A DNA stretch of 64,000 bases from an uncultured Candidatus Binatia bacterium (lineage in GTDB: Bacteria; Desulfobacterota; Binatia; UBA9968; JAJDTQ01): contig OZ243916.1 in assembly GCA_965213675.1 (NCBI GenBank), forward strand, positions 1,984,001 through 2,048,000, written 5' to 3'. The notes below the pieces were generated by a model. The model searched no databases. It had not been told where the DNA came from and saw nothing but the letters and a program-made list of their open reading frames with translations. Below, piece after piece: positions 3,663 through 59,042 of this stretch (position 1 is its first letter; each line of letters begins with the position of its first letter). A program made the translations under genes and the position numbers.

Positions 3663-3743
3663 GGAGCACCTCGAACGGCGTTGTAGAGCGGTTTCAAACT
3701 TGGCCGTGTAGGAGTTTGTCCTACCGCCCGCTGTCCCTAACTA

Positions 3744-3902
3744 GTGTGGTGTCTGGTTAATTCGCGTCATAATCTGCGGGTCTTTTTCGCCGTCGGCTGC
3801 GTTGCTCTTCCTCGCGTGGTACACGCCACTGCTCGTCATCGCGCCTTGCCGACAATAAAAAATCCTCCGCAGATTATGACCCGAATTAACCAGACACCAC
3901 AC
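3744..3902. mobile_element. 159-bp MITE, copy 1
   Basis: 36-bp terminal inverted repeats (GTGTGGTGTCTGGTTAATTCG[C/G]GTCATAATCTGCGG, 1 mismatch) flanked by TA on both sides (CTAG site); near-identical copy at 58830-58988. Confidence 0.9.
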
Positions 3903-3989
3903 TAGCTGAAAACAAGCAAGTAATACTATCCGCTTGAAGGACCGGATGGCTCGCGTCGGAACAATCAACACATGGTCAACACGACGCAA

Positions 3990-9784: not shown

Positions 9785-11210
9785 CACGCCTCGACTCGCG
9801 GCCGGCGGCCACGCCAGACGGTCTGGCGCCCGCGCCCAAGGCCCCGCCCGGCCGCGCCGCGCGCCTGCCGGGGGCTGGCCCGGAACCACCCGAGCGCGCC
9901 TCGGGCCTCCGTCCGGGCGCGCCTCCCCGTGGTCCTGTTCCAGACGCCGCCCGGTTGCCGAGTTGCACCTTGGCCCCGTCCCGCAGCGTCTCGTTGCCCA
10001 AGGTCACCACTTGCTGGCCGGGCCAGAGCGCGCCGTCGGAAATTTCCCGCAGCGCGCGGTAACCGCGCCCGGTGCTGACCCTCACCGCCTTCGCCTGCCC
10101 ATTGGACACGACGAAGACTATCTCGTCCGGGCCGCGCCGCACCACCGCGTCCTTGGGCACCAGCACGCTCGGCTCGCCGCTGGAAACGACCACCGCGACC
10201 CGCGCCAGCATGCCGGCCTTGAGGCGTCCGCGAGCGTTGGCAAGCCGGACCTTCACCGGAAAGGTGCGGCTGCGCGTGTCGGCCTGGGGAACGATGTGCG
10301 CGACCTCACCGGAGAACACCTCGCCGGGAAAGGCGTCCAGCGTCACCCTGGCCGGCAGACCCGTGCGCAGCCGCGCGATCTTGCGCTCGCCCACCGGGCC
10401 GGCGGCGAACACCGGATCCAGGTCCACCAGGTCGGCCACTGGCTCGCCCGCGTTGACCCAGTCGCCCACGTCCACGTGCTTTCGGACGATGACGCCGGAG
10501 ATGGGCGCCCGCAGCGTGCTGTGGTCGATCTCGTAGGCCACCGCGTCCAGACGCGCCCGGGCCTCCTCGTGCTCGGCCTCGGCCATGGCGATGTCCTCGG
10601 CCCGGGCGCCGGCGCGGGTGAGCTTCAAGGCGGCGCGGGCGCTGCCGTACTTCTCACGGGCGGCGAGGTAGTCGCTTTCCGCCTGCTGCAACGCCGCCAG
10701 GCTCACAAGGCGGTCCTCATAGAGTTGTTTGGCGCGATCAAAGTCGCGACGGGCGCGCTCCAGCAGCGCCTCCTGCTCCTTGGCCGCGGCCAGCCGCTGC
10801 GCCACCTCCTCGGAGCGGGACCCCTCCAGCACCTTCTCCCACTGCTTCTTCGCCCGCGCCACCGCGGCCGCGCGCTCGCGCAGGGCGATCTCACGCCGTC
10901 CCCGGTCCACCTGGAGCAAAACGGTCTTGCCCGCCGTCACCGCGTCGCCTTCCCGGAAGCCAGCCACGGCCACGCTGCCCGTCACCACCGCGGAAACGGT
11001 GGTGGCGACGTTGGGCTCGATGGTGCCGATGAAGGAGATCTCTTCGGGGATCGCCCGCGACTGCACCGGAGCCGTCTTGACGGCCACCGGCCGCGCGCCC
11101 CAAGGCTGCGCCCGAGCCTCACCGCCGGCGAAGACGAAAGCCGCCAGCAGGCAGCCGGCCACGAGAACCGGCCCCGGCGCGGCAACGAAGGACAGTGAAC
11201 GGGACAACAT
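9771..11210 (-). CDS. RND periplasmic adaptor subunit
   Basis: Coiled coil, LRAPISGVI, SRTFPVKV, LKAGM; start position estimated. Confidence 0.9.
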   Translation of the reverse strand: MLSRSLSFVAAPGPVLVAGCLLAAFVFAGGEARAQPWGARPVAVKTAPVQSRAIPEEISFIGTIEPNVATTVSAVVTGSVAVAGFREGDAVTAGKTVLLQVDRGRREIALRERAAAVARAKKQWEKVLEGSRSEEVAQRLAAAKEQEALLERARRDFDRAKQLYEDRLVSLAALQQAESDYLAAREKYGSARAALKLTRAGARAEDIAMAEAEHEEARARLDAVAYEIDHSTLRAPISGVIVRKHVDVGDWVNAGEPVADLVDLDPVFAAGPVGERKIARLRTGLPARVTLDAFPGEVFSGEVAHIVPQADTRSRTFPVKVRLANARGRLKAGMLARVAVVVSSGEPSVLVPKDAVVRRGPDEIVFVVSNGQAKAVRVSTGRGYRALREISDGALWPGQQVVTLGNETLRDGAKVQLGNRAASGTGPRGGAPGRRPEARSGGSGPAPGRRAARPGGALGAGARPSGVAAGRESRRDGNR

Positions 11211-11350
11211 GATTTTTTCCAAACGGTCCTTTTGCGAATCCACAAGCCCGCCCTGGAAGCACGGTGACCTCGACGAACTCCTGGCCCCGAACCCACAGGC
11301 GCGTGGACAACATCGCGACATCGCAAGTTCGACGATGCCAAGTTCGTTCC

Positions 11351-11387
11351 GTCGATACGCGTCGATACGATACGGCGCGTCGATGCG
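11351..11387. promoter_or_regulatory. Repeated GTCGAT(A/G)CG boxes, putative operator upstream of the RND operon
   Basis: GTCGATACGC GTCGATACG ATACG GCGC GTCGATGCG in a divergent intergenic region. Confidence 0.3.
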
Positions 11388-11624
11388 GCGCGGGCAACAC
11401 GCCACAAGTTGAGGATAGGGCTTTTGCGGGACGTGGGCAACCGTCGCCCTCTGGACTTCGCCACACCGAATCAGTACCTTTCTCAACTTTCAATCATGTG
11501 CCCCAGCGTCATCGAGCCCCAGCTTCCCTTGCCGTGAATCCGCCACAGCCATGAAGCGAGGCGACGACCGCGGACGGGGCCACAGGACGGGATGTCGCGC
11601 CGGATCCAGGCAGGTCGAGAGCCA

Positions 11625-12899
11625 ATGAATGCGGCAGAAGAACACTTCGACGTAATCGTGGCCGGCGGCGGCAGCGCAGGGGTCGCCGCGGCGGTGGGCA
11701 GCGCGAGAAGCGGCGCGCGAACGTTGCTGATCGAGCGGTACTACTGCCTCGGCGGGGCGTCGACCATGCGCAACATCCTGACGTACTGCGGCCTGTACAC
11801 GCTGGACGAGCATCCGAAGATGGTGGTGGGCGGTGTCGGCGCCGAGATCGTCGACCGTCTCCGGCGGCGCCATGCCCTCACCGGACCGTTTCGATTCCGC
11901 GGCGTCTTCGTGGTGTTCGATCCCGAGGCGGTGAAGGTCGTCCTGGACGATATCTGCCAGGACGCGGGGGTGACCGTCCTGCTTGGCGCCATGGTGGTGG
12001 GCGCGGAGCGCGCGGGCGGCGCCGTCACCACCGTAACCCTCGCCGACCATGCCGGCCTGCGCCAGGTCGGCGCCAAGGCGTTCGTCGATTGCACCGGGGA
12101 GGGGAACCTGGCGGCCCGGGCCGGCGCGGGCACCCGTTACGGCAATCCCGACGGCGTCAATCTGGGTAGCCTCGGCACGCGGTTCGGCGGCATACCCGCG
12201 GACCTCACGGTGACGGCTGACGACATCGCCGCCGCGGTGGCGCGGCTCGGACCCGAGCGCCGGCTCGTCACCAAGGAGCGCGGCGTGGTCGCCCGCCTGC
12301 CCCATTCGGGCGATCTGGCCTGTTACCTGGTCTCGGCGGACTTCGACCCGCGGGACGCGCGTTCCCTGTCCGACGCGGAACGGGACGGCCGGCGGCAGGC
12401 ATGGACGTACCTCAAGGCCATTCGCACCATACCCGGTTGCCAGGGCGCCTACCTCGTGGCCACGGGCCACGAATTCGGCACCCGCGAATCGCGGCACATC
12501 GAGTCGGTGCGTCCGTTCCAGTGGCGCGACGTGGAAGAGAGCCGCGGTTTCGACGACTGCATCGCGCTGGGCGCCTGGGGCGCGGAGTGGCACGACCGCA
12601 AGACCTACGGCAGCAGCTACGACTATCCCCCGGAGCGGACGTCCTACGAGATTCCGCTTTCCTGTCTCACCAGCCGGGACACGTCGAACCTGTTCGCGGC
12701 CGGCCGCGTCGCCGACGGCGACCGGCTCGCGGGCGCCGCCATCCGAGTCATGGGTACAGCGTTCGCCACCGGCCACGCGGCCGGTGTGGCCGCCGCGCAA
12801 GTCGCCAACGGCGGTCCCCTGCAATCCGCTTGCGTCCGGCGGGCGCTGGCCCGTCAGGGCGCCATCCTCGACCGTTCGGCGGTTTCCCCATCCCCATGA
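11625..12899 (+). CDS. FAD-dependent oxidoreductase
   Basis: DVIVAGGGSAG, FVDCTGEG, GTRESR, NLFAAGR, AIRVMGTAFATGHAAG. Confidence 0.88.
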   Translation: MNAAEEHFDVIVAGGGSAGVAAAVGSARSGARTLLIERYYCLGGASTMRNILTYCGLYTLDEHPKMVVGGVGAEIVDRLRRRHALTGPFRFRGVFVVFDPEAVKVVLDDICQDAGVTVLLGAMVVGAERAGGAVTTVTLADHAGLRQVGAKAFVDCTGEGNLAARAGAGTRYGNPDGVNLGSLGTRFGGIPADLTVTADDIAAAVARLGPERRLVTKERGVVARLPHSGDLACYLVSADFDPRDARSLSDAERDGRRQAWTYLKAIRTIPGCQGAYLVATGHEFGTRESRHIESVRPFQWRDVEESRGFDDCIALGAWGAEWHDRKTYGSSYDYPPERTSYEIPLSCLTSRDTSNLFAAGRVADGDRLAGAAIRVMGTAFATGHAAGVAAAQVANGGPLQSACVRRALARQGAILDRSAVSPSP

Positions 12900-12994
12900 T
12901 ATGACGGTTTCTTGACGGCCGTGCGCTGCTAACCCCTTGTTCGAGGGAAGGGCAGCGGCAACAATCGATTTCTGTCCCAGCAAAGGAGGATCGG

Positions 12995-14029
12995 ATGTTC
13001 AACAGAACCAATCGGAAGAGTTGGCGATGGTCCGCGGGCAGTCTCGCCGGCATCGCAATGCTCGGCCTGGCCACCCTGTGGACGAGCGAGGCCGCCGCGG
13101 AAAAGATCACCATCGGCGCGCTGCGTTTCACGTCGCATTCGCCGACGTTCATCGCCAAGGAACGGGGCTACTTCAAGAAGGAGGGCCTCGACGTGGAGCT
13201 CAAGTTCTTCCAGGCGGCCCAGCCCATCGCCGTGGCCATCGCTTCGGGAGACATCGACTTCGGCGTCACCGCCCTCACCGGCGGCTTCTACAACCTTGCG
13301 GGCAAGGGCGCCCTCAAGGTCATCGGCGGCCTCTACACCGAGGACCCCAAACACAACGGCATGGCGATCATGGCCTCCAACAAGGCCCACACTGCCGGTC
13401 TCACTACGCCCGAGGCCATCAAGGGGCGGAGCTGGGCCATGACCCAGCAGGGATCGTCCTTCCACTACATCATCGGCATGATCGGCGCGAAGCACGGCTT
13501 CGGCATCGCCGACGTCGATGTCAAGCCCCTTCAGAAAGTCCCCGCCATGATCGGAGCGGTGAAGTCGGGCCAGGTGGACGCCATGGCCATGGTGCCCCAC
13601 GTGGCGATTCCCCTCGACAAGGCCGGCGCGGCCAAAATCATCGGCTGGGTCCGCGACCTGGGCGACTATCAGGTGACGACGATCTTCACCTCAACGGACA
13701 ACGTCCAGAATCATCGTGGCAAGGTCGAGCGCTTCCTGCGCGCCTACCGCAAGGGCATCGCCGACTACCGCACCGTCATGCTCGACCAGAACAAGGACCT
13801 CGACGCCACCGAAGCCATGGTGGCCCTGATCCACAAGTACGTCTACACATCCCGGCCGCGCGAGAAGGCGGCGCCGTCCATCAAGGCGGGCGCGGTCTAC
13901 ATGACCGAGGACGCGGCCCTGGACATCGCCGACCTGAAGCGGCAGTTGGTGTGGTTCCAGGCCCAGGGCTTCGCTCCAAAGTCCTTGACCACCGAGACCT
14001 ACGTCGAGACCAGCTTCGTGAAGCCATAG
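12995..14029 (+). CDS. NitT/TauT ABC substrate-binding protein
   Basis: Signal peptide, AKERGYFKKEGLDVE, SGQVDA. Confidence 0.88.
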   Translation: MFNRTNRKSWRWSAGSLAGIAMLGLATLWTSEAAAEKITIGALRFTSHSPTFIAKERGYFKKEGLDVELKFFQAAQPIAVAIASGDIDFGVTALTGGFYNLAGKGALKVIGGLYTEDPKHNGMAIMASNKAHTAGLTTPEAIKGRSWAMTQQGSSFHYIIGMIGAKHGFGIADVDVKPLQKVPAMIGAVKSGQVDAMAMVPHVAIPLDKAGAAKIIGWVRDLGDYQVTTIFTSTDNVQNHRGKVERFLRAYRKGIADYRTVMLDQNKDLDATEAMVALIHKYVYTSRPREKAAPSIKAGAVYMTEDAALDIADLKRQLVWFQAQGFAPKSLTTETYVETSFVKP

Positions 14030-14279
14030 CGGTGAGAACCCCAGGCGGATGGAAGCGTCCCGGCGCGCCTCCATCCGCTTGGGAGCTTGCGCCGCCGGTA
14101 TTCGCGAAAGCGGATTTGCAGCCGTGAATTCCTACGGCGCATGCTCCTGGGAGCCCGTCTCGCGAACAGGGTCTTGAAGATGCGAGGGCGATCTTGTTGC
14201 CGGCAGGGCGCGATGGCGAGCGGTGGCGGGCAGGGACTCGCAGATTCATGCCAGGCAAGACACTGGGCCGCACAAGCGG

Positions 14280-15047
14280 ATGGACATCCACGTCGATCAC
14301 ATCAGCCACTGGTACGGGCAGACGGAAGTCCTGCGGGACATCGACCTGCGCATCGGCTCGGGACAGATCGTCTGCATCATCGGACCGTCCGGCTGCGGCA
14401 AGTCGACGCTGCTGCGGTTTCTGGGCGGGCTGGAGCGTCCGACCCGGGGGACCGTCCGGCAGATGGGCCCGCCGCCGCCCGACAGTCTCAATCCGCTGAC
14501 CTATATCTTTCAGGATTTCGCCCTGCTGCCGTGGCGCTCCGCCGCCGGCAACATTTCCCTGGTGCTGGAACGGCACGGCCTGTCGCGCGGCGAGGCCAAC
14601 GCCATCGTCGACGACGTGCTCGCCCGGACCAAGCTCACGGACTTCCGCGACGCCCTGCCGAAGCAGCTCTCCGGCGGCATGAAGCAGCGGGTGGCCATCG
14701 CCCGGGCGCTGGCGGTGCGGCCCGCCTGTCTGTTGATGGATGAGCCGCTGTCGTCACTGGACGGGCAGACACGGGAGCTGCTCCTCGACGACCTCCTGGA
14801 CCTGTGGCTGCGCGAACGCTTCACCGCCTGCTACGTGACCCACAATCTCGAAGAGGCCGTGCGGCTCGGTCACAAGATCGTGGTGTTGTCACGGCGGCCC
14901 GGCTGCATCCGCGAGGTCGTGGAACTGGACACGCCGCTGGAAGAGCGCAAGGGGCAGTCCGGCATGTTGTGGGAGCGCCAGCGCCACCTCTGGGAGCTGA
15001 TGCGGGAGGAAGCGCTGGCCGCGGATCAGGAGATCGTCCATGTCTGA
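14280..15047 (+). CDS. NitT/TauT ABC ATP-binding protein
   Basis: GPSGCGKST, LSGGMKQR, LLMDEP. Confidence 0.93.
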   Translation: MDIHVDHISHWYGQTEVLRDIDLRIGSGQIVCIIGPSGCGKSTLLRFLGGLERPTRGTVRQMGPPPPDSLNPLTYIFQDFALLPWRSAAGNISLVLERHGLSRGEANAIVDDVLARTKLTDFRDALPKQLSGGMKQRVAIARALAVRPACLLMDEPLSSLDGQTRELLLDDLLDLWLRERFTACYVTHNLEEAVRLGHKIVVLSRRPGCIREVVELDTPLEERKGQSGMLWERQRHLWELMREEALAADQEIVHV

Positions 15048-15837
15048 ACCTGCGGGCGGCGCGCCGGTTCCCTATCGCGGCGGCGGCTTCCAGCCCCGGC
15101 CCGTGGGCGTGGTGGGCCCGCTGGTCTTCGCCGGGCTCATCGGCCTGTGGGAGATCGCCTCCCGCGCGGGTTGGATCAGCGACCTCATGGCCCCCGCGCC
15201 CAGCCAGGCCATGGCCGCCCTCGTCCATCTGGTGAAGACCGGCGAGATCTGGTTGCATCTCGTGGCTTCGCTCCAGCGGCTACTGCTGGGCTGGACGCTG
15301 GGCACGGTGGCCGGGCTCCTGGTGGGCTTCTCCGCCGGACTGTTCTCGCTGGCCCGGGCGGGCATCGTCCCGTTCGTGGCCGCCATCTTTCCCATTCCCA
15401 AGATCGCGCTGTTGCCCCTGTTCATCATCTGGTTCGGCATCGGCGAGGAATCCAAGGTGGCGACCATCTTCTTCGGCACGTTCTTCCCCACCGTCATCTC
15501 GGTCTACGGCGGCGTCGACAACGTGGACCGCACGCTGATCCGCATGGGGCAGTCCTTCGACCTCACCTGGTTCTCCATCGTGCGCAAGATCATCCTGCCC
15601 GGCGCCATGCCCGCGATCCTTTCCGGCTTCCGCATATCCACGTCCATCGCCATCATCCTGCTGGTGGCCGCCGAGATGATCGGCGCCGAGTTCGGCGTGG
15701 GCGCCTACATCCTGCTGGCCGGCAACCTCATGGCCACCGACCAGCTCATCGCTGGCGCCGCCCTGCTGTCCCTCATGGGCCTCACCGTGAGCTGGCTCAT
15801 CGGCAAGGCCGAGAAGAGCATCCTGCGGTGGCGCTAG
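15040..15837 (+). CDS. NitT/TauT ABC permease
   Basis: PIPKIALLPLFIIWFGIGE, LVAAEMIGA. Confidence 0.92.
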   Translation: MSEPAGGAPVPYRGGGFQPRPVGVVGPLVFAGLIGLWEIASRAGWISDLMAPAPSQAMAALVHLVKTGEIWLHLVASLQRLLLGWTLGTVAGLLVGFSAGLFSLARAGIVPFVAAIFPIPKIALLPLFIIWFGIGEESKVATIFFGTFFPTVISVYGGVDNVDRTLIRMGQSFDLTWFSIVRKIILPGAMPAILSGFRISTSIAIILLVAAEMIGAEFGVGAYILLAGNLMATDQLIAGAALLSLMGLTVSWLIGKAEKSILRWR

Positions 15838-15857
15838 TGTGGTGTCTGGTTAATTCG
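15834..15857 (+). repeat. MITE terminal remnant
   Basis: CTAGTGTGGTGTCTGGTTAATTCG, identical to the end of MITE copy 1; overlaps a TAG stop. Confidence 0.8.
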
Positions 15858-16133
15858 AGGATGTAACCCAAGGCAGGGAACTGCGTAGGGGCCACGCGCC
15901 GGTCCCCCCACGGGAAATCGTCCGGTCACGGTCGGAAATCATCCGGTCACGGTCTTTGCGGCGGCGGCCGGTGGCCGGGCCGGATGCCGCTGCCGTCGAC
16001 GCATTCCGGCGTCCCGAATGAACCGCTGGGCTGCTTGACAGCCTTTCGGCGACGGCCTACGATTCCGACATTCCAGCACGGTGCGCCACCCAGCCCCCGG
16101 GTATCCCATTTCACGTTCGTGGAGGAAGCACAC

Positions 16134-17258
16134 ATGGCCAAGCAAGGCTTCAAGGCAATGGATTCCGATATGCATGTGTTCGAACCCCACGACCTGTGGG
16201 ATCGTTACATCGATTCGGAGTTCAAGGACCGCGCCCCCAAGGGTTTGCAACGCGATTTTCGCGACTTGGGCGTGGAGGTGGACGGGAAGATCCTGCCGGT
16301 GCCGAGGCGGCCGGAAAACCCCAACCTGCGCGAATACCGTCTGGCCACCCTGAAGGAGAAGTACAGCGACGTGGCGGCGCGCAACTTCGACGGCGTGAGC
16401 CAGGTCATGGCCATGGACAAGGAAGGCTTGGACATGGCGTTCCTGTTCCCCACCCGCGGGCTGTTCGTCCTGGGCATCGACGGGCTCGATCCGGACCTGG
16501 CGGCGGCCATCTCCCGCGCCTACAACGACTGGCTTTACGATTTCGCCGAGGCCGACCGTGATCGCATGGTGTGCGTCGCCATGGTGCCGCCGCACAACGT
16601 CGAGGCGGCGGTGGCCGAGACCCGGCGGACGGTAACCGAAATGGGTTTCCGGGGCGTCTTCATGCGCCCCAACCAGACCAACGGCAAGTGCTGGAGCGAC
16701 CCCTGCTACGACCCCCTGTGGGAGGTGTGCCAGAGCCTGAACGTGCCCGTGGGCTTTCACGAGGCCGGGCGCGTGTACCAGCCCCAGCCCGCCATCTCCC
16801 AGTTCATCCCGTCCTTCTCCATGTTCAACACCCTGAGCTTTCCGCTGGCCAACATGTTCGCGTGCGCGGACATGATCTACGGCGGCGTCATGGAGCGTTT
16901 TCCCAAGCTGCGCGTGGCCTTCCTGGAAGGCAACTGCTCGTGGCTGCCGTGGCTCCTGTACCGCATGGGCGACTACATGGAATCGGTGGGCAAGGCCGAG
17001 TACCCGGACTTGAAGCTCGAGCCGCTGGAGTACTTCCAGCGCCAATGCTTCGGCGCCGTGGAATGCGACGAGATCACCGCCCGGCACATCCCGGATTTCG
17101 GCCTGGAGGACAACGTGGTGTTCTCCACCGACTACCCGCACCTGGACGTCAAGTATCCCCACTCACTGGATACGTTCCTGGGAATGCCATTCTCCGACGA
17201 GTCCAAACGGAAGTACCTCTGGGACAACTGCGCCCGCCTTTACAACATGGAGCCATGA
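16134..17258 (+). CDS. amidohydrolase family protein (Amidohydro_2)
   Basis: DSDMH, AYNDWL, VGFH, FLEGNCSW, FSTDYPH. Confidence 0.9.
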   Translation: MAKQGFKAMDSDMHVFEPHDLWDRYIDSEFKDRAPKGLQRDFRDLGVEVDGKILPVPRRPENPNLREYRLATLKEKYSDVAARNFDGVSQVMAMDKEGLDMAFLFPTRGLFVLGIDGLDPDLAAAISRAYNDWLYDFAEADRDRMVCVAMVPPHNVEAAVAETRRTVTEMGFRGVFMRPNQTNGKCWSDPCYDPLWEVCQSLNVPVGFHEAGRVYQPQPAISQFIPSFSMFNTLSFPLANMFACADMIYGGVMERFPKLRVAFLEGNCSWLPWLLYRMGDYMESVGKAEYPDLKLEPLEYFQRQCFGAVECDEITARHIPDFGLEDNVVFSTDYPHLDVKYPHSLDTFLGMPFSDESKRKYLWDNCARLYNMEP

Positions 17259-17418
17259 CACTCCCCGTGTCCTGTCCGGCGGATTCGCGCATGACAAGGT
17301 GCGGAGAAGTGTCTGCGGAGAACTGTCATCGCCGGCCAAACGCGATGACTTGCAGGAGCGACCGGCGGTCGCTTTCGCGGGCGCCGCGCGAGGAAATGCC
17401 ACGCAGCCGGCGGCGAAA

Positions 17419-18582
17419 ATGACCCGCGGACCCGCATGTGAACCCGCCGGACGGGACGCCGACTCCAAGGCGACATTCGCGCGCCGTGGGATCGTGGAAG
17501 GTTTCTTCGGCCCCCCGTGGAGCATGGCCCACCGTACGGCGATGTTCGCATTCGGCGCCGCCCGCGGCATGAACACCTACCTCTACGCACCCAAGGACGA
17601 CCCCTACCACCGGGAGCACTGGCAACTGCCCTACCCCGAGCCGGAATGGCGCGAGTTGTGCGCGCTCATCGCCGCCGCCCAGACCCACGGCATCGACTTC
17701 GTCTACGGCTTTCACCCCGGCAAGGACCTGCGCTTTGCGGATTCGGAACCGGTGGGCATTCTGCTGGACAAGGCGGCGCGCCTGTACGACCAAGGCGTGC
17801 GCACCTTCGCGGTGTTGTTCGACGACATTCCGTCTCGCCTTGCGGACGCCGGCGACGTGCAGCGGTTCGACGGCAGCCTGGCCAAGGCCGAATCCCTCTG
17901 GCTCGAAGCGGTGCTGGAGCGGCAAGCCGCGGCCTGGCAGGTGGAGTGGTGGTTCTGTCCCTCGTACTACACACCGGACCCGTTCCTGGCCAGGGTGTTC
18001 GGCGAGTTCGAGCCCGGCTTTATCGAGACCGTGGCGCGGCACCTGCCGGCAGCGGTGGCGTGCTTCTGGACCGGCCCCAAGGTGGTTTCCCGTGACATCC
18101 CGCTGGCACACGTCGACGACATCGCCCGGAGGCTGGGACACCGGCTGCTGCTGTGGGACAACTATCCCGTGAACGATCTCTACATGAAGGACGAGTTGCA
18201 CATCGGTCCCCTCACCGGACGCCATCCGCGGCTGCCGGAGCAGGCGCACGGGCACCTCGCCAACCCGCTGTTGCAGGAGGCGCTGAGCTTCGTTCCCCTT
18301 GCCACCTGCTTCGACTACGCGCGCGACCCCGGGGCCTACGATCCGGAGAAGAGTTGGGAGGCGGTCGTGGCGGAACGGTTCGGCGCCGCCAACCTGGAGC
18401 CCTGGCGGGCGCTCCGACTGTTTTGTGAACGGGACGCGGCCAGCGCCGGCGCGGCAACGTTTTCGGAGCCGGAGCGCGGCGCCCTCGCAGCCGCCCACGC
18501 CTACCTTTCGACTCACCGGAGCGAAGCGTGGCGCCGCGAGTTCGAACCGTGGCGGGAGCGGCTGGAGCGCGCGCTACACTAG
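17419..18582 (+). CDS. GH84 beta-N-acetylglucosaminidase (O-GlcNAcase-like), single domain
   Basis: GIVEGFFGPPW, YLYAPKDDPYHR, catalytic VLFDDI, WTGPKVV, WDNYPVND; start uncertain. Confidence 0.88.
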   Translation: MTRGPACEPAGRDADSKATFARRGIVEGFFGPPWSMAHRTAMFAFGAARGMNTYLYAPKDDPYHREHWQLPYPEPEWRELCALIAAAQTHGIDFVYGFHPGKDLRFADSEPVGILLDKAARLYDQGVRTFAVLFDDIPSRLADAGDVQRFDGSLAKAESLWLEAVLERQAAAWQVEWWFCPSYYTPDPFLARVFGEFEPGFIETVARHLPAAVACFWTGPKVVSRDIPLAHVDDIARRLGHRLLLWDNYPVNDLYMKDELHIGPLTGRHPRLPEQAHGHLANPLLQEALSFVPLATCFDYARDPGAYDPEKSWEAVVAERFGAANLEPWRALRLFCERDAASAGAATFSEPERGALAAAHAYLSTHRSEAWRREFEPWRERLERALH

Positions 18583-18608
18583 TGTGGTGTCTGGTTGATT
18601 CGCGTCAT
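18579..18608 (+). repeat. MITE terminal remnant forming the whole GH84-senA spacer
   Basis: CTAGTGTGGTGTCTGGTTGATTCGCGTCAT, 1 mismatch to the MITE left end. Confidence 0.8.
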
Positions 18609-19911
18609 GGAAGACAAAACCGCATCCACCCGTGAAGTCCTGGGCACCCTGGAAGAGGTGCGCTCCCGGACCTTGGGCTTCGTTGAGGACCTGTCCGGGG
18701 AGCAACTCACGGTTCCCTTGCTGAACATCGTCAACCCCCCGCTCTGGGAGATCGGGCATGTATCCTGGTTTCACGAGCGCTGGGCGTTGCGGCATCTGCG
18801 CGGCCGCGATCCCATCATTGCCAACGGCGACGCGCTCTACGATTCCGCGGCCGTCCATCACGACACCCGCTGGGTGCTGGCGCTGCCGCCGCTTGAAGCG
18901 ACCCTCGCCTACAAGGCACGGGTCCTGCAACAGATCATCGAAGAGCTGCCCGCCCAGCGTTTGAGCCCGAAGGAAACCTACTTCCACAGGCTCGTGATCT
19001 TCCACGAGGACATGCACGCGGAGGCCATGACCTACACGCGCCAGACTCTGGGATATCCGCGGCCTCCATTCATGCGCCAACGCCAGGGCGCGGCCGGCGG
19101 TCCCTGCCCGGGCGACGTGGAGTTGCCGGGCGGCGAATTCATTCTCGGCGGCACGCCGGACCTGCCCTTCGTCTTCGACAACGAAAAATGGGGCCATCCG
19201 GTGACCGTGGCGCCCTATCGCATCGCCCGCGCTCCAGTGACGAACCTGGAGTTCGCCGCCTTCGTGGACGACAACGGCTACGGTGACTCGCGCTGGTGGA
19301 GCGACGCGGGCTGGCGCTGGCGGCAGGGCGAGGGGAGCGCCCATCCCGTCTATTGGAAACGCGAGTCTCCGGGACGGTGGCTGGAGCGGGTGTTCGATCA
19401 ATGGGGGCCGCTTCAAGCGGAGATCCCGGTGATCCACGTCAACTGGTACGAGGCCGAGGCGTATTGCCGCTGGGCCGGAAGGCGGCTGGCCACGGAGGCG
19501 GAGTGGGAGATGGCCGCGGCGGTGGACCCCGCCGGCGGCACAGATCCGGATGCCGCCAAGCGCCGCTACCCCTGGGGCGAGGTGCCGCCCGACCCCATCC
19601 ACGGCAACCTCGATTGGGCCGCTGGAGGCCGCCTGCCAGTGGACGCGCTTTCGGCGGGCGACAGCGCCGCCGGCTGCCGGCAGATGATCGGCAACGTGTG
19701 GGAGTGGACGGCCCACGCCTTCCACCCCTACCCCGGCTTCGTCCGGGACCCCTACAAGGAATACTCGGAGCCCTGGTTCGGCGACCGCAAGGTGCTGCGC
19801 GGCGGCTGCTGGGCCACCCGCTCCCACCTGATCCGCAACACCTGGCGGAACTTCTTCACCCCGGACCGCCGCGACGTGTTGGCGGGCTTCCGGACCTGCG
19901 CACGACACTAA
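18607..19911 (+). CDS. senA: selenoneine synthase SenA (EgtB-like DinB plus FGE-sulfatase domains)
   Basis: NPPLWEIGHVSWFHE, HEDMHAEA iron ligands, GNVWEW, EYSEPWFG, RGGCWAT; adjacent to senB. Confidence 0.85.
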   Translation: MEDKTASTREVLGTLEEVRSRTLGFVEDLSGEQLTVPLLNIVNPPLWEIGHVSWFHERWALRHLRGRDPIIANGDALYDSAAVHHDTRWVLALPPLEATLAYKARVLQQIIEELPAQRLSPKETYFHRLVIFHEDMHAEAMTYTRQTLGYPRPPFMRQRQGAAGGPCPGDVELPGGEFILGGTPDLPFVFDNEKWGHPVTVAPYRIARAPVTNLEFAAFVDDNGYGDSRWWSDAGWRWRQGEGSAHPVYWKRESPGRWLERVFDQWGPLQAEIPVIHVNWYEAEAYCRWAGRRLATEAEWEMAAAVDPAGGTDPDAAKRRYPWGEVPPDPIHGNLDWAAGGRLPVDALSAGDSAAGCRQMIGNVWEWTAHAFHPYPGFVRDPYKEYSEPWFGDRKVLRGGCWATRSHLIRNTWRNFFTPDRRDVLAGFRTCARH

Positions 19912-20050
19912 TGGCGTGGCACACGATGACGCGTGACAGGCCACGAATGTCTCGTCCTGTTCGACAACCCGGATGACAACACTTCGAACGAATTGGCCAG
20001 GACATCGGCCCATTGGATTGGACAACGAGTTGACACGAACAAGCACCGCG

Positions 20051-21007
20051 GTGGCCAGAATCGCGCTCGTGACTCCCGCTGGTCCCACCCGGCGCACCGG
20101 CAACCGGATTTCCGGGGGCCGGTGGGCGCGCATCCTGCGGGCGTCGGGATACAAGGTCACGGCCCTGGACCGCTACGAACGTGAACGCTGTGATCTGCTG
20201 ATCGCGTTGCATGCCCGGCGCAGTCATCCGTCCATCCGCCAGTTTCATGAGCGCCAGCCCGACAAGCCCATCATTGTCGTGCTGACCGGAACCGACCTGT
20301 ACCGCGACATTCACGTGGACGACGACTCCCGGGAGTCGCTGCGCTTGGCGACCCGCCTGGTGGTGCTCCAACGCAAGGGACTGGACGAACTCCAGCCGGG
20401 GCTGCACGAGAAGACCCGGGTCATCTACCAGTCCGCGCCAGCCCGTCCGGGCCATCGCCGCGACCGAAACCTGCAGTTCACGGTTACGGTGGTGGGCCAC
20501 ATGCGCCCCGAGAAAGACCCGTTCCGCACCGCCATGGCGGTGCGCTCGCTGCCCCGCACGTCCCGGATCCAGGTCACGCACATCGGCGACGCCTTCGGCG
20601 ACAGCTTCCTGCGCCGCGCCGAACGGGAAGTCGAGCACAACCCGCGCTACCGCTGGCTGGGCGACCTGCCCCACTGGAAGACGCGGCAACTCCTGGCCAA
20701 CAGCCACCTCACGTCCATCACCTCGCGCATGGAAGGCAGCTCCAATGTCCTGTGTGAAGCGCTGGCCTCCGGCGTGCCCGTGGCCGCGTCCAGGATCTCC
20801 GGTTTGATGGGAACCCTGGGCGACGACTATCCCGGCTACTACGAGATGGGCGACACCGCCGGGCTCAAGCGTCTCCTGCTGCGGGCCGAGAACGATCCGG
20901 CGTTCTATGAGAACCTGGCACGGCACTGCGCCAAGGTCGCCCCCCTGGTGAACCCGGACCGGGAGATCCTGACTTGGCAGGGGTTGGTCCGTGAAGTGAC
21001 GCGTTGA
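20051..21007 (+). CDS. senB: selenosugar synthase SenB (glycosyltransferase)
   Basis: TP...GNR...RWARIL, IALHARRS, VLTGTDLYRDI, VGHMRPEKDP, SRMEG, LGDDYPGYY. Confidence 0.88.
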   Translation: MARIALVTPAGPTRRTGNRISGGRWARILRASGYKVTALDRYERERCDLLIALHARRSHPSIRQFHERQPDKPIIVVLTGTDLYRDIHVDDDSRESLRLATRLVVLQRKGLDELQPGLHEKTRVIYQSAPARPGHRRDRNLQFTVTVVGHMRPEKDPFRTAMAVRSLPRTSRIQVTHIGDAFGDSFLRRAEREVEHNPRYRWLGDLPHWKTRQLLANSHLTSITSRMEGSSNVLCEALASGVPVAASRISGLMGTLGDDYPGYYEMGDTAGLKRLLLRAENDPAFYENLARHCAKVAPLVNPDREILTWQGLVREVTR

Positions 21008-21027
21008 TCACGCCTCAAACCTCTCTA

Positions 21028-21147
21028 TCATTCCCGCGAAAGCTTGCCCTCGACCCCGATCGGGGGCGGGAAACCAAGGCAGGGCCGCACCTCTCCCCAC
21101 CCCTGGATTCCGCTTTCGCGGGAAGGCCGGATAGGGCCAGGGATGAC
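21028..21147. repeat. REP/dRS3-like palindromic element (TCATTCCCGCGAAAGC...GCTTTCGCGGGAA)
   Basis: Inverted arms between convergent senB and lysJ; related to the element at 30099-30191. Confidence 0.7.
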
Positions 21148-21210
21148 GTTGCGGGTATTTCGCGGAAATGGTGTGTCGGGCACCTGGCGGAATGTCGGAG
21201 CGGCAAGGTA

Positions 21211-22370
<1,160 letters not shown>

Positions 22371-22371
<1 letters not shown>

Positions 22372-23162
22372 CACTGGATCACCGTTCCTTTCCCCGCCAA
22401 CGCGTCTCGCACCGGGTGTTCCGTGCGGCCGTCGCTCATGATGACCTTTTCCGCGCCGTCCTCGAAGAGCTTGCGCAGCGCCAGCATCTTGCGCTTCATG
22501 CGCCCCTCCACCTGCCCCTCCCGCTGTTCCAGTTCACCCGCCCGGATGTGCGGCACCACGGTGCCCTCGTCGTCCTTGTCGGCGAGGAAGCCCGGCGCCT
22601 CGATGAGCTGCAGCACCACCTCGGCATGGAAGGCAGCCTGGAGCACGTTGATGATGTCGTCGTTCTCCGAGTTGATGGCGTTGTGGCGCTCGTCGATGAT
22701 GGGGATGGACAGCACCGGGGCGTAACCGCCGTCGAGCAGCAACTGGAACAGTTCCCTGTTGGCGCTCCGGGGCTTGCCCGAGAAGTCGCGTACGATGAGG
22801 GTCTTGCCGTTCTTGCGCACCCGGATGCCCTTGTTGCGCTGGCCCTGAATGGCGCGGCCATCGATGCCCGAAAGGCCCACGGCATTGACCCCATTCTGTT
22901 GCAGCAACTCCACGATGCGCTTGTTCTGAACCCCGGCGTAGCCCATCAGGATGGCGTCGAGCGCGTCTTTGTCCGACAGCACGCTGGTGTAGCCCGACAC
23001 CGACGTGACCACCTGGGTGGGGGTCCCGAGCCTGGCCGCGATGGCGTCGCGCACCGCGTTGGCGCCGTGCACCACGATGAACCGGTCGGACACGGCCGCC
23101 AGATCCCCGGCGATGCCCGGAAGGTTGATGTCGCTGCCGCCGCCGATCTTCACCAGTATCAT
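22371..23162 (-). CDS. lysZ: [LysW]-aminoadipate/glutamate kinase
   Basis: VKIGG, VVHGA, SVSGYTS, GRMKRK. Confidence 0.88.
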
Positions 23163-29966: not shown

Positions 29967-30098
29967 CAGCGGATACCTCCCTCGTCAAGAACTGATCCAA
30001 TGAAGCACATCCTTCGATTTCACCTCGTTCGTCATTTCTGGCGGCGGCCACCCCCGTCAATCCTGGCCTCCCCTTCCGTCACTCCCTTCCTCCCTCCT

Positions 30099-30191
30099 GT
30101 CATTTCCGCGAAAGCGGGAATCCAGGCGGGGTGGTGGAAAGTGCTGCCCAACCCCGATCCGCTCCCGGATTCCCGCTTTCGCGGAAATGAC
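30099..30191. repeat. REP/dRS3-like palindrome
   Basis: Perfect 25-bp inverted repeat GTCATTTCCGCGAAAGCGGGAATCC / GGATTCCCGCTTTCGCGGAAATGAC. Confidence 0.85.
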
Positions 30192-30261
30192 GGGGGGAGG
30201 CGGGATTGACAGGAGGAGAGGCGGGAATGACGATACGGACGTCGGCGGATCGCTGGTGTCG

Positions 30262-58788: not shown

Positions 58789-59042
58789 TGGCGGAGGGGG
58801 CAAGACTCGAACTCGCGGCCCGCTGTTTAGTGTGGTGTCTGGTTAATACGCGTCATAATCTGCGGGTCTTTTTCGCCGTCGGCTGCGTTGCTCTTCCTCG
58901 CGTGGTACACGCCACTGCTCGTCATCGCGCCTTGCCGACAACAAAAAATCCTCCGCAGATTATGACCCGTATTAACCAGACACCACACTAGGCGAACGCC
59001 GATTTTCAAGACCAGTGCCTTGAGCCGCTCGGCCACCCTTCC
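58789..59042 (-). tRNA. tRNA-Ser(TGA) interrupted by a MITE, possibly a pseudogene
   Basis: Removing the insertion gives 93 nt: GGAAGGGTGGCCGAGCGGCTCAAGGCACTGGTCTTGAAAATCGGCGTTCGCCTAAACAGCGGGCCGCGAGTTCGAGTCTTGCCCCCTCCGCCA, with long variable arm, G73 and CCA. Confidence 0.88.
58830..58988. mobile_element. 159-bp MITE, copy 2, within tRNA-Ser
   Basis: Three differences from 3744-3902; TA duplicated at 58828-29 and 58989-90. Confidence 0.92.

Follow-up and report, generated by a model that had tools for sequence, protein, structure and literature searches.

A GH84 beta-N-acetylglucosaminidase gene conserved beside the selenoneine genes senA and senB in one order of Binatia suggests a sugar-removal or recycling step

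The closest described counterpart of the selenoneine genes reported here is the senABC cluster of Variovorax paradoxus (Kayrouz and Seyedsayamdost, bioRxiv 10.1101/2022.04.13.486033). According to the accessible text of that preprint, SenB converts uridine diphosphate N-acetylglucosamine (UDP-GlcNAc) and selenophosphate into 1-seleno-beta-GlcNAc (SeGlcNAc), and SenA joins this selenosugar to hercynine as a selenoxide, which was not directly detected. The internal, Cope-type elimination of the selenoxide is described there as spontaneous, and an EgtE-like enzyme is said to be unnecessary. A hercynyl-SeGlcNAc selenoether was also seen in vitro; it was attributed to reduction by dithiothreitol, and no enzyme is assigned to it in the same text. 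The locus reported here belongs to an uncultured Candidatus Binatia bacterium. The window, i.e., the whole stretch of DNA that was analysed (64,000 nucleotides), corresponds to C1:1984001-2048000 in a genome of 4.53 Mb (97.7% complete), and it carries on the + strand a gene for a GH84 beta-N-acetylglucosaminidase followed by senA and senB. This trio is a genuine variant of the selenoneine cluster, conserved and equipped with a dedicated, intact GH84, and it suggests an undescribed step of sugar removal or recycling.

As in V. paradoxus, a true senA and a true senB are adjacent on one strand. The selenoneine synthase gene senA (18607-19911; frame from 18595) scores 507 bits against NF041186, above the equivalog cut-off of 420, and its product combines a DinB_2 and an FGE-sulfatase (formylglycine-generating enzyme) domain in a Pfam scan. 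The selenosugar (SeGlcNAc) synthase gene senB (19973-21007) scores 383 bits against TIGR04348, whose equivalog cut-off of 300 was reached by no control genome; an alternative start is GTG 20051, and a 99%-identical database protein has 318 aa. The GH84 gene, encoding 387 aa, occupies 17419-18582, with a frame open from GTG 17299 (PF07555, 275.3 bits for a cut-off of 25). Read directly from the sequence, its TAG stop (18580-18582) and the senA ATG (18607) leave a gap of 24 nt. The original prediction of an intact GH84 on the same strand, 24 nt upstream of senA and with senB behind it, is thus borne out by the open reading frames (ORFs), the family scans and direct reading. The genome holds one GH84, one SenA above cut-off and one SenB above cut-off.

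The cluster differs from that of V. paradoxus on three points: GH84 and an Amidohydro_2-family gene are added upstream, senC is missing, and SelD is encoded elsewhere. No SelD-type gene lies next to senAB, hence the canonical three-gene senABC arrangement is not found here. The only SelD match above cut-off is located ~0.7 Mb away (C1:2717463-2718389, locus L006) and contains an in-frame TGA. Presumably, it represents a selenophosphate synthetase that contains selenocysteine, supplies both selenocysteine and selenoneine synthesis and takes the place of senC. An EgtD-like methyltransferase gene is present ~22 kb upstream of GH84; its score of 281 bits is just below the cut-off of 290.9.

The GH84 protein looks intact, cytoplasmic and catalytically competent, judging from its residues and its predicted model. 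The N-terminus, MTRGPACEPAGRDADSK, has no hydrophobic signal segment, and the motifs VLFDDIP and LWDNYPVND are present, in agreement with the catalytic FDD and the lack of an obvious signal peptide that had been proposed. Among solved structures, TtOGA, the O-GlcNAc hydrolase of Thermobaculum terrenum, matches best (5diy, 204 bits), and NagJ (CpOGA) of C. perfringens comes next. The DD pair (D135, D136) and the motifs GIVEGF-G-PW, YAPKDDPYHR, CP..Y and W.NYPV.D align with both. Together with K59, Y184, W246, N248, D253 and N282, the two aspartates align with their CpOGA and TtOGA counterparts and are at least 90% conserved in 69 aligned GH84 sequences; E27, G28, R39, K59, D135, D136, Y184, T218, G219, W246, D247, N248 and D253 are invariant in this set. 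The AlphaFold model (pLDDT 95.1, pTM 0.92) is predicted to form a complete catalytic TIM barrel followed by a short helical bundle. Foldseek listed 44 fold matches, all of them GH84 structures, with 5diy on top (TM 0.84). NCBIfam NF041654, the model of BT_4395-type GlcNAcases (732 positions), is matched in its catalytic domain only, with 192 bits against 1000.

The fold, the catalytic DD and the GlcNAc-binding residues are thus shared with TtOGA, CpOGA NagJ, BtGH84 and OgOGA, but the protein is shorter, with 387 aa compared to 447-474 aa in the single-module OgOGA and TtOGA. It also departs from the bacterial O-GlcNAcase homologues by features specific to its clade: the substitutions Y30F (Phe in 100% of the clade, Tyr in 96% of the sequences outside), S99H, T182S, E183Y and Y201F, and an aromatic-rich insertion, residues 186-198, after the active-site Tyr184. 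Tyr69 of human O-GlcNAcase (hOGA), the equivalent of position 30, is proposed in the accessible part of PMC3476531 to hydrogen-bond to the catalytic acid, and the Y69F variant keeps activity. Phe30 would suit a substrate with little need of acid catalysis, which is only a hint. In a search of 1.84 billion cluster representatives, the sen-linked GH84s group tightly. Only one full-length representative, at 61%, exceeds 42% identity, and the other matches above this value are all fragments, 152-301 aa long.

The linkage of GH84 to senB is not limited to this genome. The order was surveyed with the GH84 protein and the SenB family in 61 genomes from three families and 14 genera: GH84 was found in 55, SenB in 57 and both in 54. 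In 50 of these 54 genomes, the two genes lie on one contig and strand, 0.1-4.3 kb apart, whereas in the four exceptions they are on separate contigs of fragmented assemblies (260 to 400 contigs). The prediction had named a lack of linkage in related genomes as grounds for its rejection, and the linkage holds. One genome (G009) has GH84 next to senA with no SenB match; three others (G042, G056, G059), all fragmented or incomplete assemblies, have SenB without GH84. Neither gene was found in G019 (76% complete), G034 and G036; in genus g7 (2 genomes), neither was detected, and G034 retains a SenA above cut-off. SenA was present in all six GH84-carrying genomes checked for it.

Gene orders were compared in 19 fetched loci. 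In the genus of the present genome (g1), the order is Amidohydro_2 - GH84 - senA - senB, convergent with lys genes. Family f3 shows either GH84 - senA - senB or GH84 - VOC - (SBP) - alpha/beta-hydrolase - senA - senB, with SBP standing for a solute-binding protein; one to three of these genes separate GH84 from senA in seven of the 14 f3 loci fetched. In family f2, GH84 and senB stand alone, 110-270 nt apart, and senA is found 1.4 Mb off in G028, 0.8 Mb off in G032 and on a separate contig in G030. In the two f2 senA loci fetched (G028 and G032), no other cluster gene accompanies it. The flanking genes vary between families, and the GH84-senB pairing outlasts these changes, the internal insertions and the departure of senA. 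Across the loci of the order, GH84 is under a constraint similar to that on the sen proteins, with identity ranging over 58-78% for GH84, 55-87% for SenA and 55-82% for SenB. Since GH84 remains beside senB when senA is elsewhere, it is linked with the selenosugar half of the pathway rather than with the product of SenA in particular.

In this genome, the junction between GH84 and senA is covered by a repeat. A 169-nt element resembling a miniature inverted-repeat transposable element (MITE), with 39-nt terminal inverted repeats, is present in the window in two full copies (3742-3910 and 58828-58996). Solo repeat ends occur in two intergenic spacers, at 15833-15863 and 18578-18608, and each of them provides the TAG stop of the upstream gene. 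The second one, a 30-nt copy on the + strand (repeat families D2, I6 and I9), covers the 24-nt spacer together with the codons on either side of it, the stop of GH84 and the ATG start of senA, which it also provides. The 17-nt core of the repeat has six matches in the window, compared to zero expected; among the 123 loci fetched, it is confined to those of this genome and absent from those of its relatives. The MITE-derived spacer of the original prediction is therefore real, but the accompanying idea of a recent chance junction can be ruled out: the repeat is private to this genome and the gene order is shared across the order, so the GH84-senA junction is ancestral.

From the gene identities, the intact active site, the cytoplasmic location and the conserved linkage to senB, a substrate and a physiological role can be inferred. 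A functional tie of the GH84 to the selenosugar chemistry of SenB is probable on these sequence grounds. More tentatively, and at somewhat less than even chances, the enzyme would remove GlcNAc from Se-GlcNAc conjugates made via SenB, with the hercynyl-SeGlcNAc selenoether as the likeliest substrate. A thiol-rich cytoplasm would divert part of the flux into this selenoether before the selenoxide eliminates. The GH84 would then act as the partner of SenB that takes GlcNAc off again, by cytoplasmic, substrate-assisted hydrolysis of beta-Se-GlcNAc linkages in which the acetamido group of the substrate would serve as the nucleophile. Hydrolysis of the selenoether would free selenoneine, a good selenolate or selone leaving group, together with GlcNAc, which could re-enter UDP-GlcNAc synthesis. 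Among the titles cited in the accessible part of PMC10636738, one reports thioglycoside cleavage by O-GlcNAcase in which general acid catalysis plays no part.

Several observations weigh against the selenoether as substrate, or against a general need for the enzyme. The accessible text of PMC10636738 calls Cys-S-GlcNAc peptides non-hydrolysable by hOGA; hence, a chalcogen glycoside is not cleaved as a matter of course, and the outcome depends on the leaving group. The GH84 looks broken in two genomes, with an internal TAA in G044 (C17:44432-45610) and a split into two overlapping frames in L039 (7191-8352). These are possibly pseudogenes or sequencing errors; taken at face value, they mean that the enzyme may be dispensable. 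The f2 layout, with GH84 beside senB and not senA, fits a product of SenB alone at least as well as the selenoether. Beyond the order, a scan with the SenB alignment, one genome per species, gave at least 578 relatives, of which 80 loci were analysed. No GH84 was detected by phmmer and the GH84 profile in any of the 56 senB loci of other phyla (flanks up to 10 kb per side, many shorter), which come from Acidobacteriota, Burkholderiales and other Proteobacteria, Planctomycetota, Rubrobacteraceae, Tectomicrobia, Poribacteria and others. Pfam scanning of 202 of their 307 neighbouring ORFs, covering 36 of the 56 loci, revealed neither GH3, GH20 nor GH84; the remaining 20 loci (105 ORFs) were checked for GH84 only. 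Elsewhere, the pathway thus runs without such a hydrolase beside senB. Finally, all linked cases fall in one order and may trace to a single ancestral event.

The other 24 of the 80 loci are labelled as Binatia or 'delta' type, and 17 of them contain GH84. In six, the contig ends within or just before senA or the hydrolase gene, and in L047 no GH84 was found within 4.3 kb upstream. A sample of 151 genomes of the class had GH84 in 48 and SenB in 24. Outside the order, this sample contains six SenB-positive genomes, two of which also have GH84, on other contigs, and 27 genomes with GH84, mostly in longer forms, and without SenB. None of five betaproteobacterial SenB genomes carries a GH84. A single GH84 was found in 401 genomes of the order Burkholderiales, ~4 kb from an AmpG-like major facilitator superfamily (MFS) gene and with no SenB within 10 kb. 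The GH84-senB linkage is real and old, and in these samples it is confined to one order. The absence of GH84 from the 56 loci of other phyla makes it an accessory of a lineage rather than the general missing enzyme of the sen pathway. Hence, the proposal of an undescribed pathway enzyme finds partial support, in the conserved linkage and the intact enzyme; it does not hold for a general sen step, and the f2 loci place the tie with senB instead of senA.

Confinement to one order would also be expected if the GH84 were an ordinary enzyme, unrelated to selenium and active in NagZ-like wall recycling, O-GlcNAc removal or amino-sugar catabolism, its adjacency to senAB being inherited synteny. Such a role is unlikely. 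It would agree with the absence of GH3/NagZ from this genome, with the 27 GH84-positive, SenB-negative genomes of the class, and with the occurrence of short cytoplasmic GH84s in other contexts, like the one near the AmpG-like MFS gene in Burkholderiales. On the contrary, GH3 and the sen-linked GH84 occur together in 25 of 28 f3 genomes, and genus g7 yielded neither of them, so the two families do not show the complementary pattern of a NagZ substitute. AnmK (PF03702) and a GT41 O-GlcNAc transferase (PF13844) were not found in the genome either, and without a GT41, O-GlcNAc cycling has no writer. In comparison with O-GlcNAc cycling, the genomic partner of the present GH84 is a Se-glycosyltransferase. 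An inherited neighbourhood also accords poorly with the adjacency of GH84 and senB, which persists where both flanks have changed and where senA has left the block.

The f2 layout leaves two other selenium-related readings as live alternatives to selenoether hydrolysis. In the first, the GH84 would hydrolyse free SeGlcNAc to GlcNAc and selenide, as a release of selenium from a store or buffer or for the use of imported selenosugar. This is rather improbable, even if GH84 keeps its place beside senB in the family in which senA is elsewhere. Carriers of the AmpG type accept cargo that contains GlcNAc, and the AmpG-family permease convergent to senB in f3 (described below) hints at traffic of GlcNAc-Se compounds. 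However, no AmpG-like gene lies near the cluster in the present genus, and the only match in this genome is 28-34% identical. A synthase and a hydrolase of one compound within one operon would, moreover, amount to a futile cycle unless regulated, and the presence of SenA in every GH84 genome checked does not favour a role independent of it.

In the second alternative, the GH84 would salvage the by-product of the elimination, hydrating 2-acetamidoglucal to GlcNAc through an oxazoline-type mechanism. Glycosidases can hydrate glycals, and the residues of the GH84 sugar site are fully conserved. The internal Cope-type elimination described in the accessible part of the preprint would supply the substrate if the sugar leaves as 2-acetamidoglucal; this identity is our inference, as the word 'glucal' is not found in the preprint text. 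This salvage is quite unlikely, because no source was found that shows GH84 action on 2-acetamidoglucal, the aromatic loop after Tyr184 would fit a bulky aglycone better than none, and the f2 layout weakens any tie to the reaction of SenA.

Removal of GlcNAc from the hercynyl selenoether, on the other hand, would follow the same logic as EgtC and EgtE in ergothioneine synthesis, where the carrier of the chalcogen donor is removed after coupling to hercynine. The likeness is a functional analogy only: EgtC and EgtE act by amidohydrolysis and as a lyase dependent on pyridoxal phosphate, whereas glycoside hydrolysis is proposed here, and the protein families are unrelated. A wider version, possible but doubtful, would make GlcNAc an enzymatically recycled selenium carrier: SenB would load it, the dedicated GH84 would unload hercynyl-Se-GlcNAc in place of a spontaneous release, and the AmpG-like permease of f3 would move GlcNAc-Se compounds.

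The GH84, senA and senB genes are preceded by the Amidohydro_2-family gene (15984-17258, + strand; PF04909, 116 bits), directly upstream of GH84. The block thus consists of four consecutive + strand genes, Amidohydro_2 - GH84 - senA - senB, at 15984-21007. No terminator-like sites were found between them; a promoter and terminator scan of 11000-22500 gave counts not above those of shuffled sequences. From its sequence, the block reads as one operon. Within this genus, the block consistently begins with the Amidohydro_2 gene: orthologues with 85-90% identity abut GH84 in all three genus loci examined and in six further loci of the genus type. Its closest solved relative is PtmU3 (PDB 6omp, E = 1e-34). 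PtmU3 is a non-haem di-iron monooxygenase with an amidohydrolase fold. On the 5' side, the block is flanked by a flavin-dependent (FAD) oxidoreductase and an ATP-binding cassette transporter of the SsuA/NMT1 type; on the 3' side, a class-III aminotransferase, a LysW-type kinase, a small amidotransferase-like gene and argC/lysY are convergent to it. Elsewhere in the window, two 39-nt arms with 87% complementarity, separated by a 27-nt loop, form an inverted repeat at 30093-30197.

Other genes recur around the cluster in related loci. An AmpG-family MFS permease gene is convergent to senB in nine of the 13 f3 loci in which the flank beyond senB was Pfam-scanned (for example, L022, L023, L026, L028, L029, L030 and L032); its TIGR00901 score of 254 bits is below the cut-off of 350, and its cargo may be GlcNAc-Se compounds. 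A secreted, FGE-sulfatase-like protein of ~270 aa is encoded divergently from GH84 in L017-L019, L022, L023, L031 and L032. The possibility that this neighbour, found in f2 and f3, is a second SenA-like enzyme was rejected, given its signal peptide and the lack of a DinB domain. The FGE-like gene is often accompanied by a LysE exporter gene and a fatty-acid-desaturase-like gene, and several f3 loci carry all three upstream; a desaturase gene is also found 3' of senB in the Acidobacteria locus L078. One f3 locus carries EgtD. Two tandem SenA-like genes, scoring ~250 and ~500 bits to the SenA described here, are present in L075, L080, L081, L082, L085 and L096 (labelled as Blastocatellia, Pyrinomonadaceae or Heliomicrobium), in clusters that add SelD and a pyridine-nucleotide disulphide oxidoreductase. 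These clusters may make a second seleno-imidazole product or include a dedicated reductase.

In the literature searched (subscription papers and supplements lay outside its scope), no link between a GH84 and the selenoneine pathway was found, nor any report of selenoneine in Binatia. The accessible texts of the selenoneine preprint (bioRxiv 10.1101/2022.04.13.486033) and of the ovoselenol preprint do not mention a glycosidase or hydrolase, and the same literature, as far as its accessible text goes, yielded no enzyme that acts on the hercynyl-SeGlcNAc selenoether.

The selenoneine pathway, as described, ends non-enzymatically, and its reduced side product, GlcNAc-selenoneine, has no known fate. 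The conserved GH84 offers a specific candidate enzyme for its release or salvage. Its restriction to one order tempers its importance, as it would be an accessory enzyme and not a universal member of the pathway. If it unloads hercynyl-Se-GlcNAc as in the wider version above, no earlier natural glycoside hydrolase would share its specialisation for a C-Se glycosidic bond. As a natural enzyme for the cleavage of selenium glycosides, it could raise selenoneine yields in engineered hosts.

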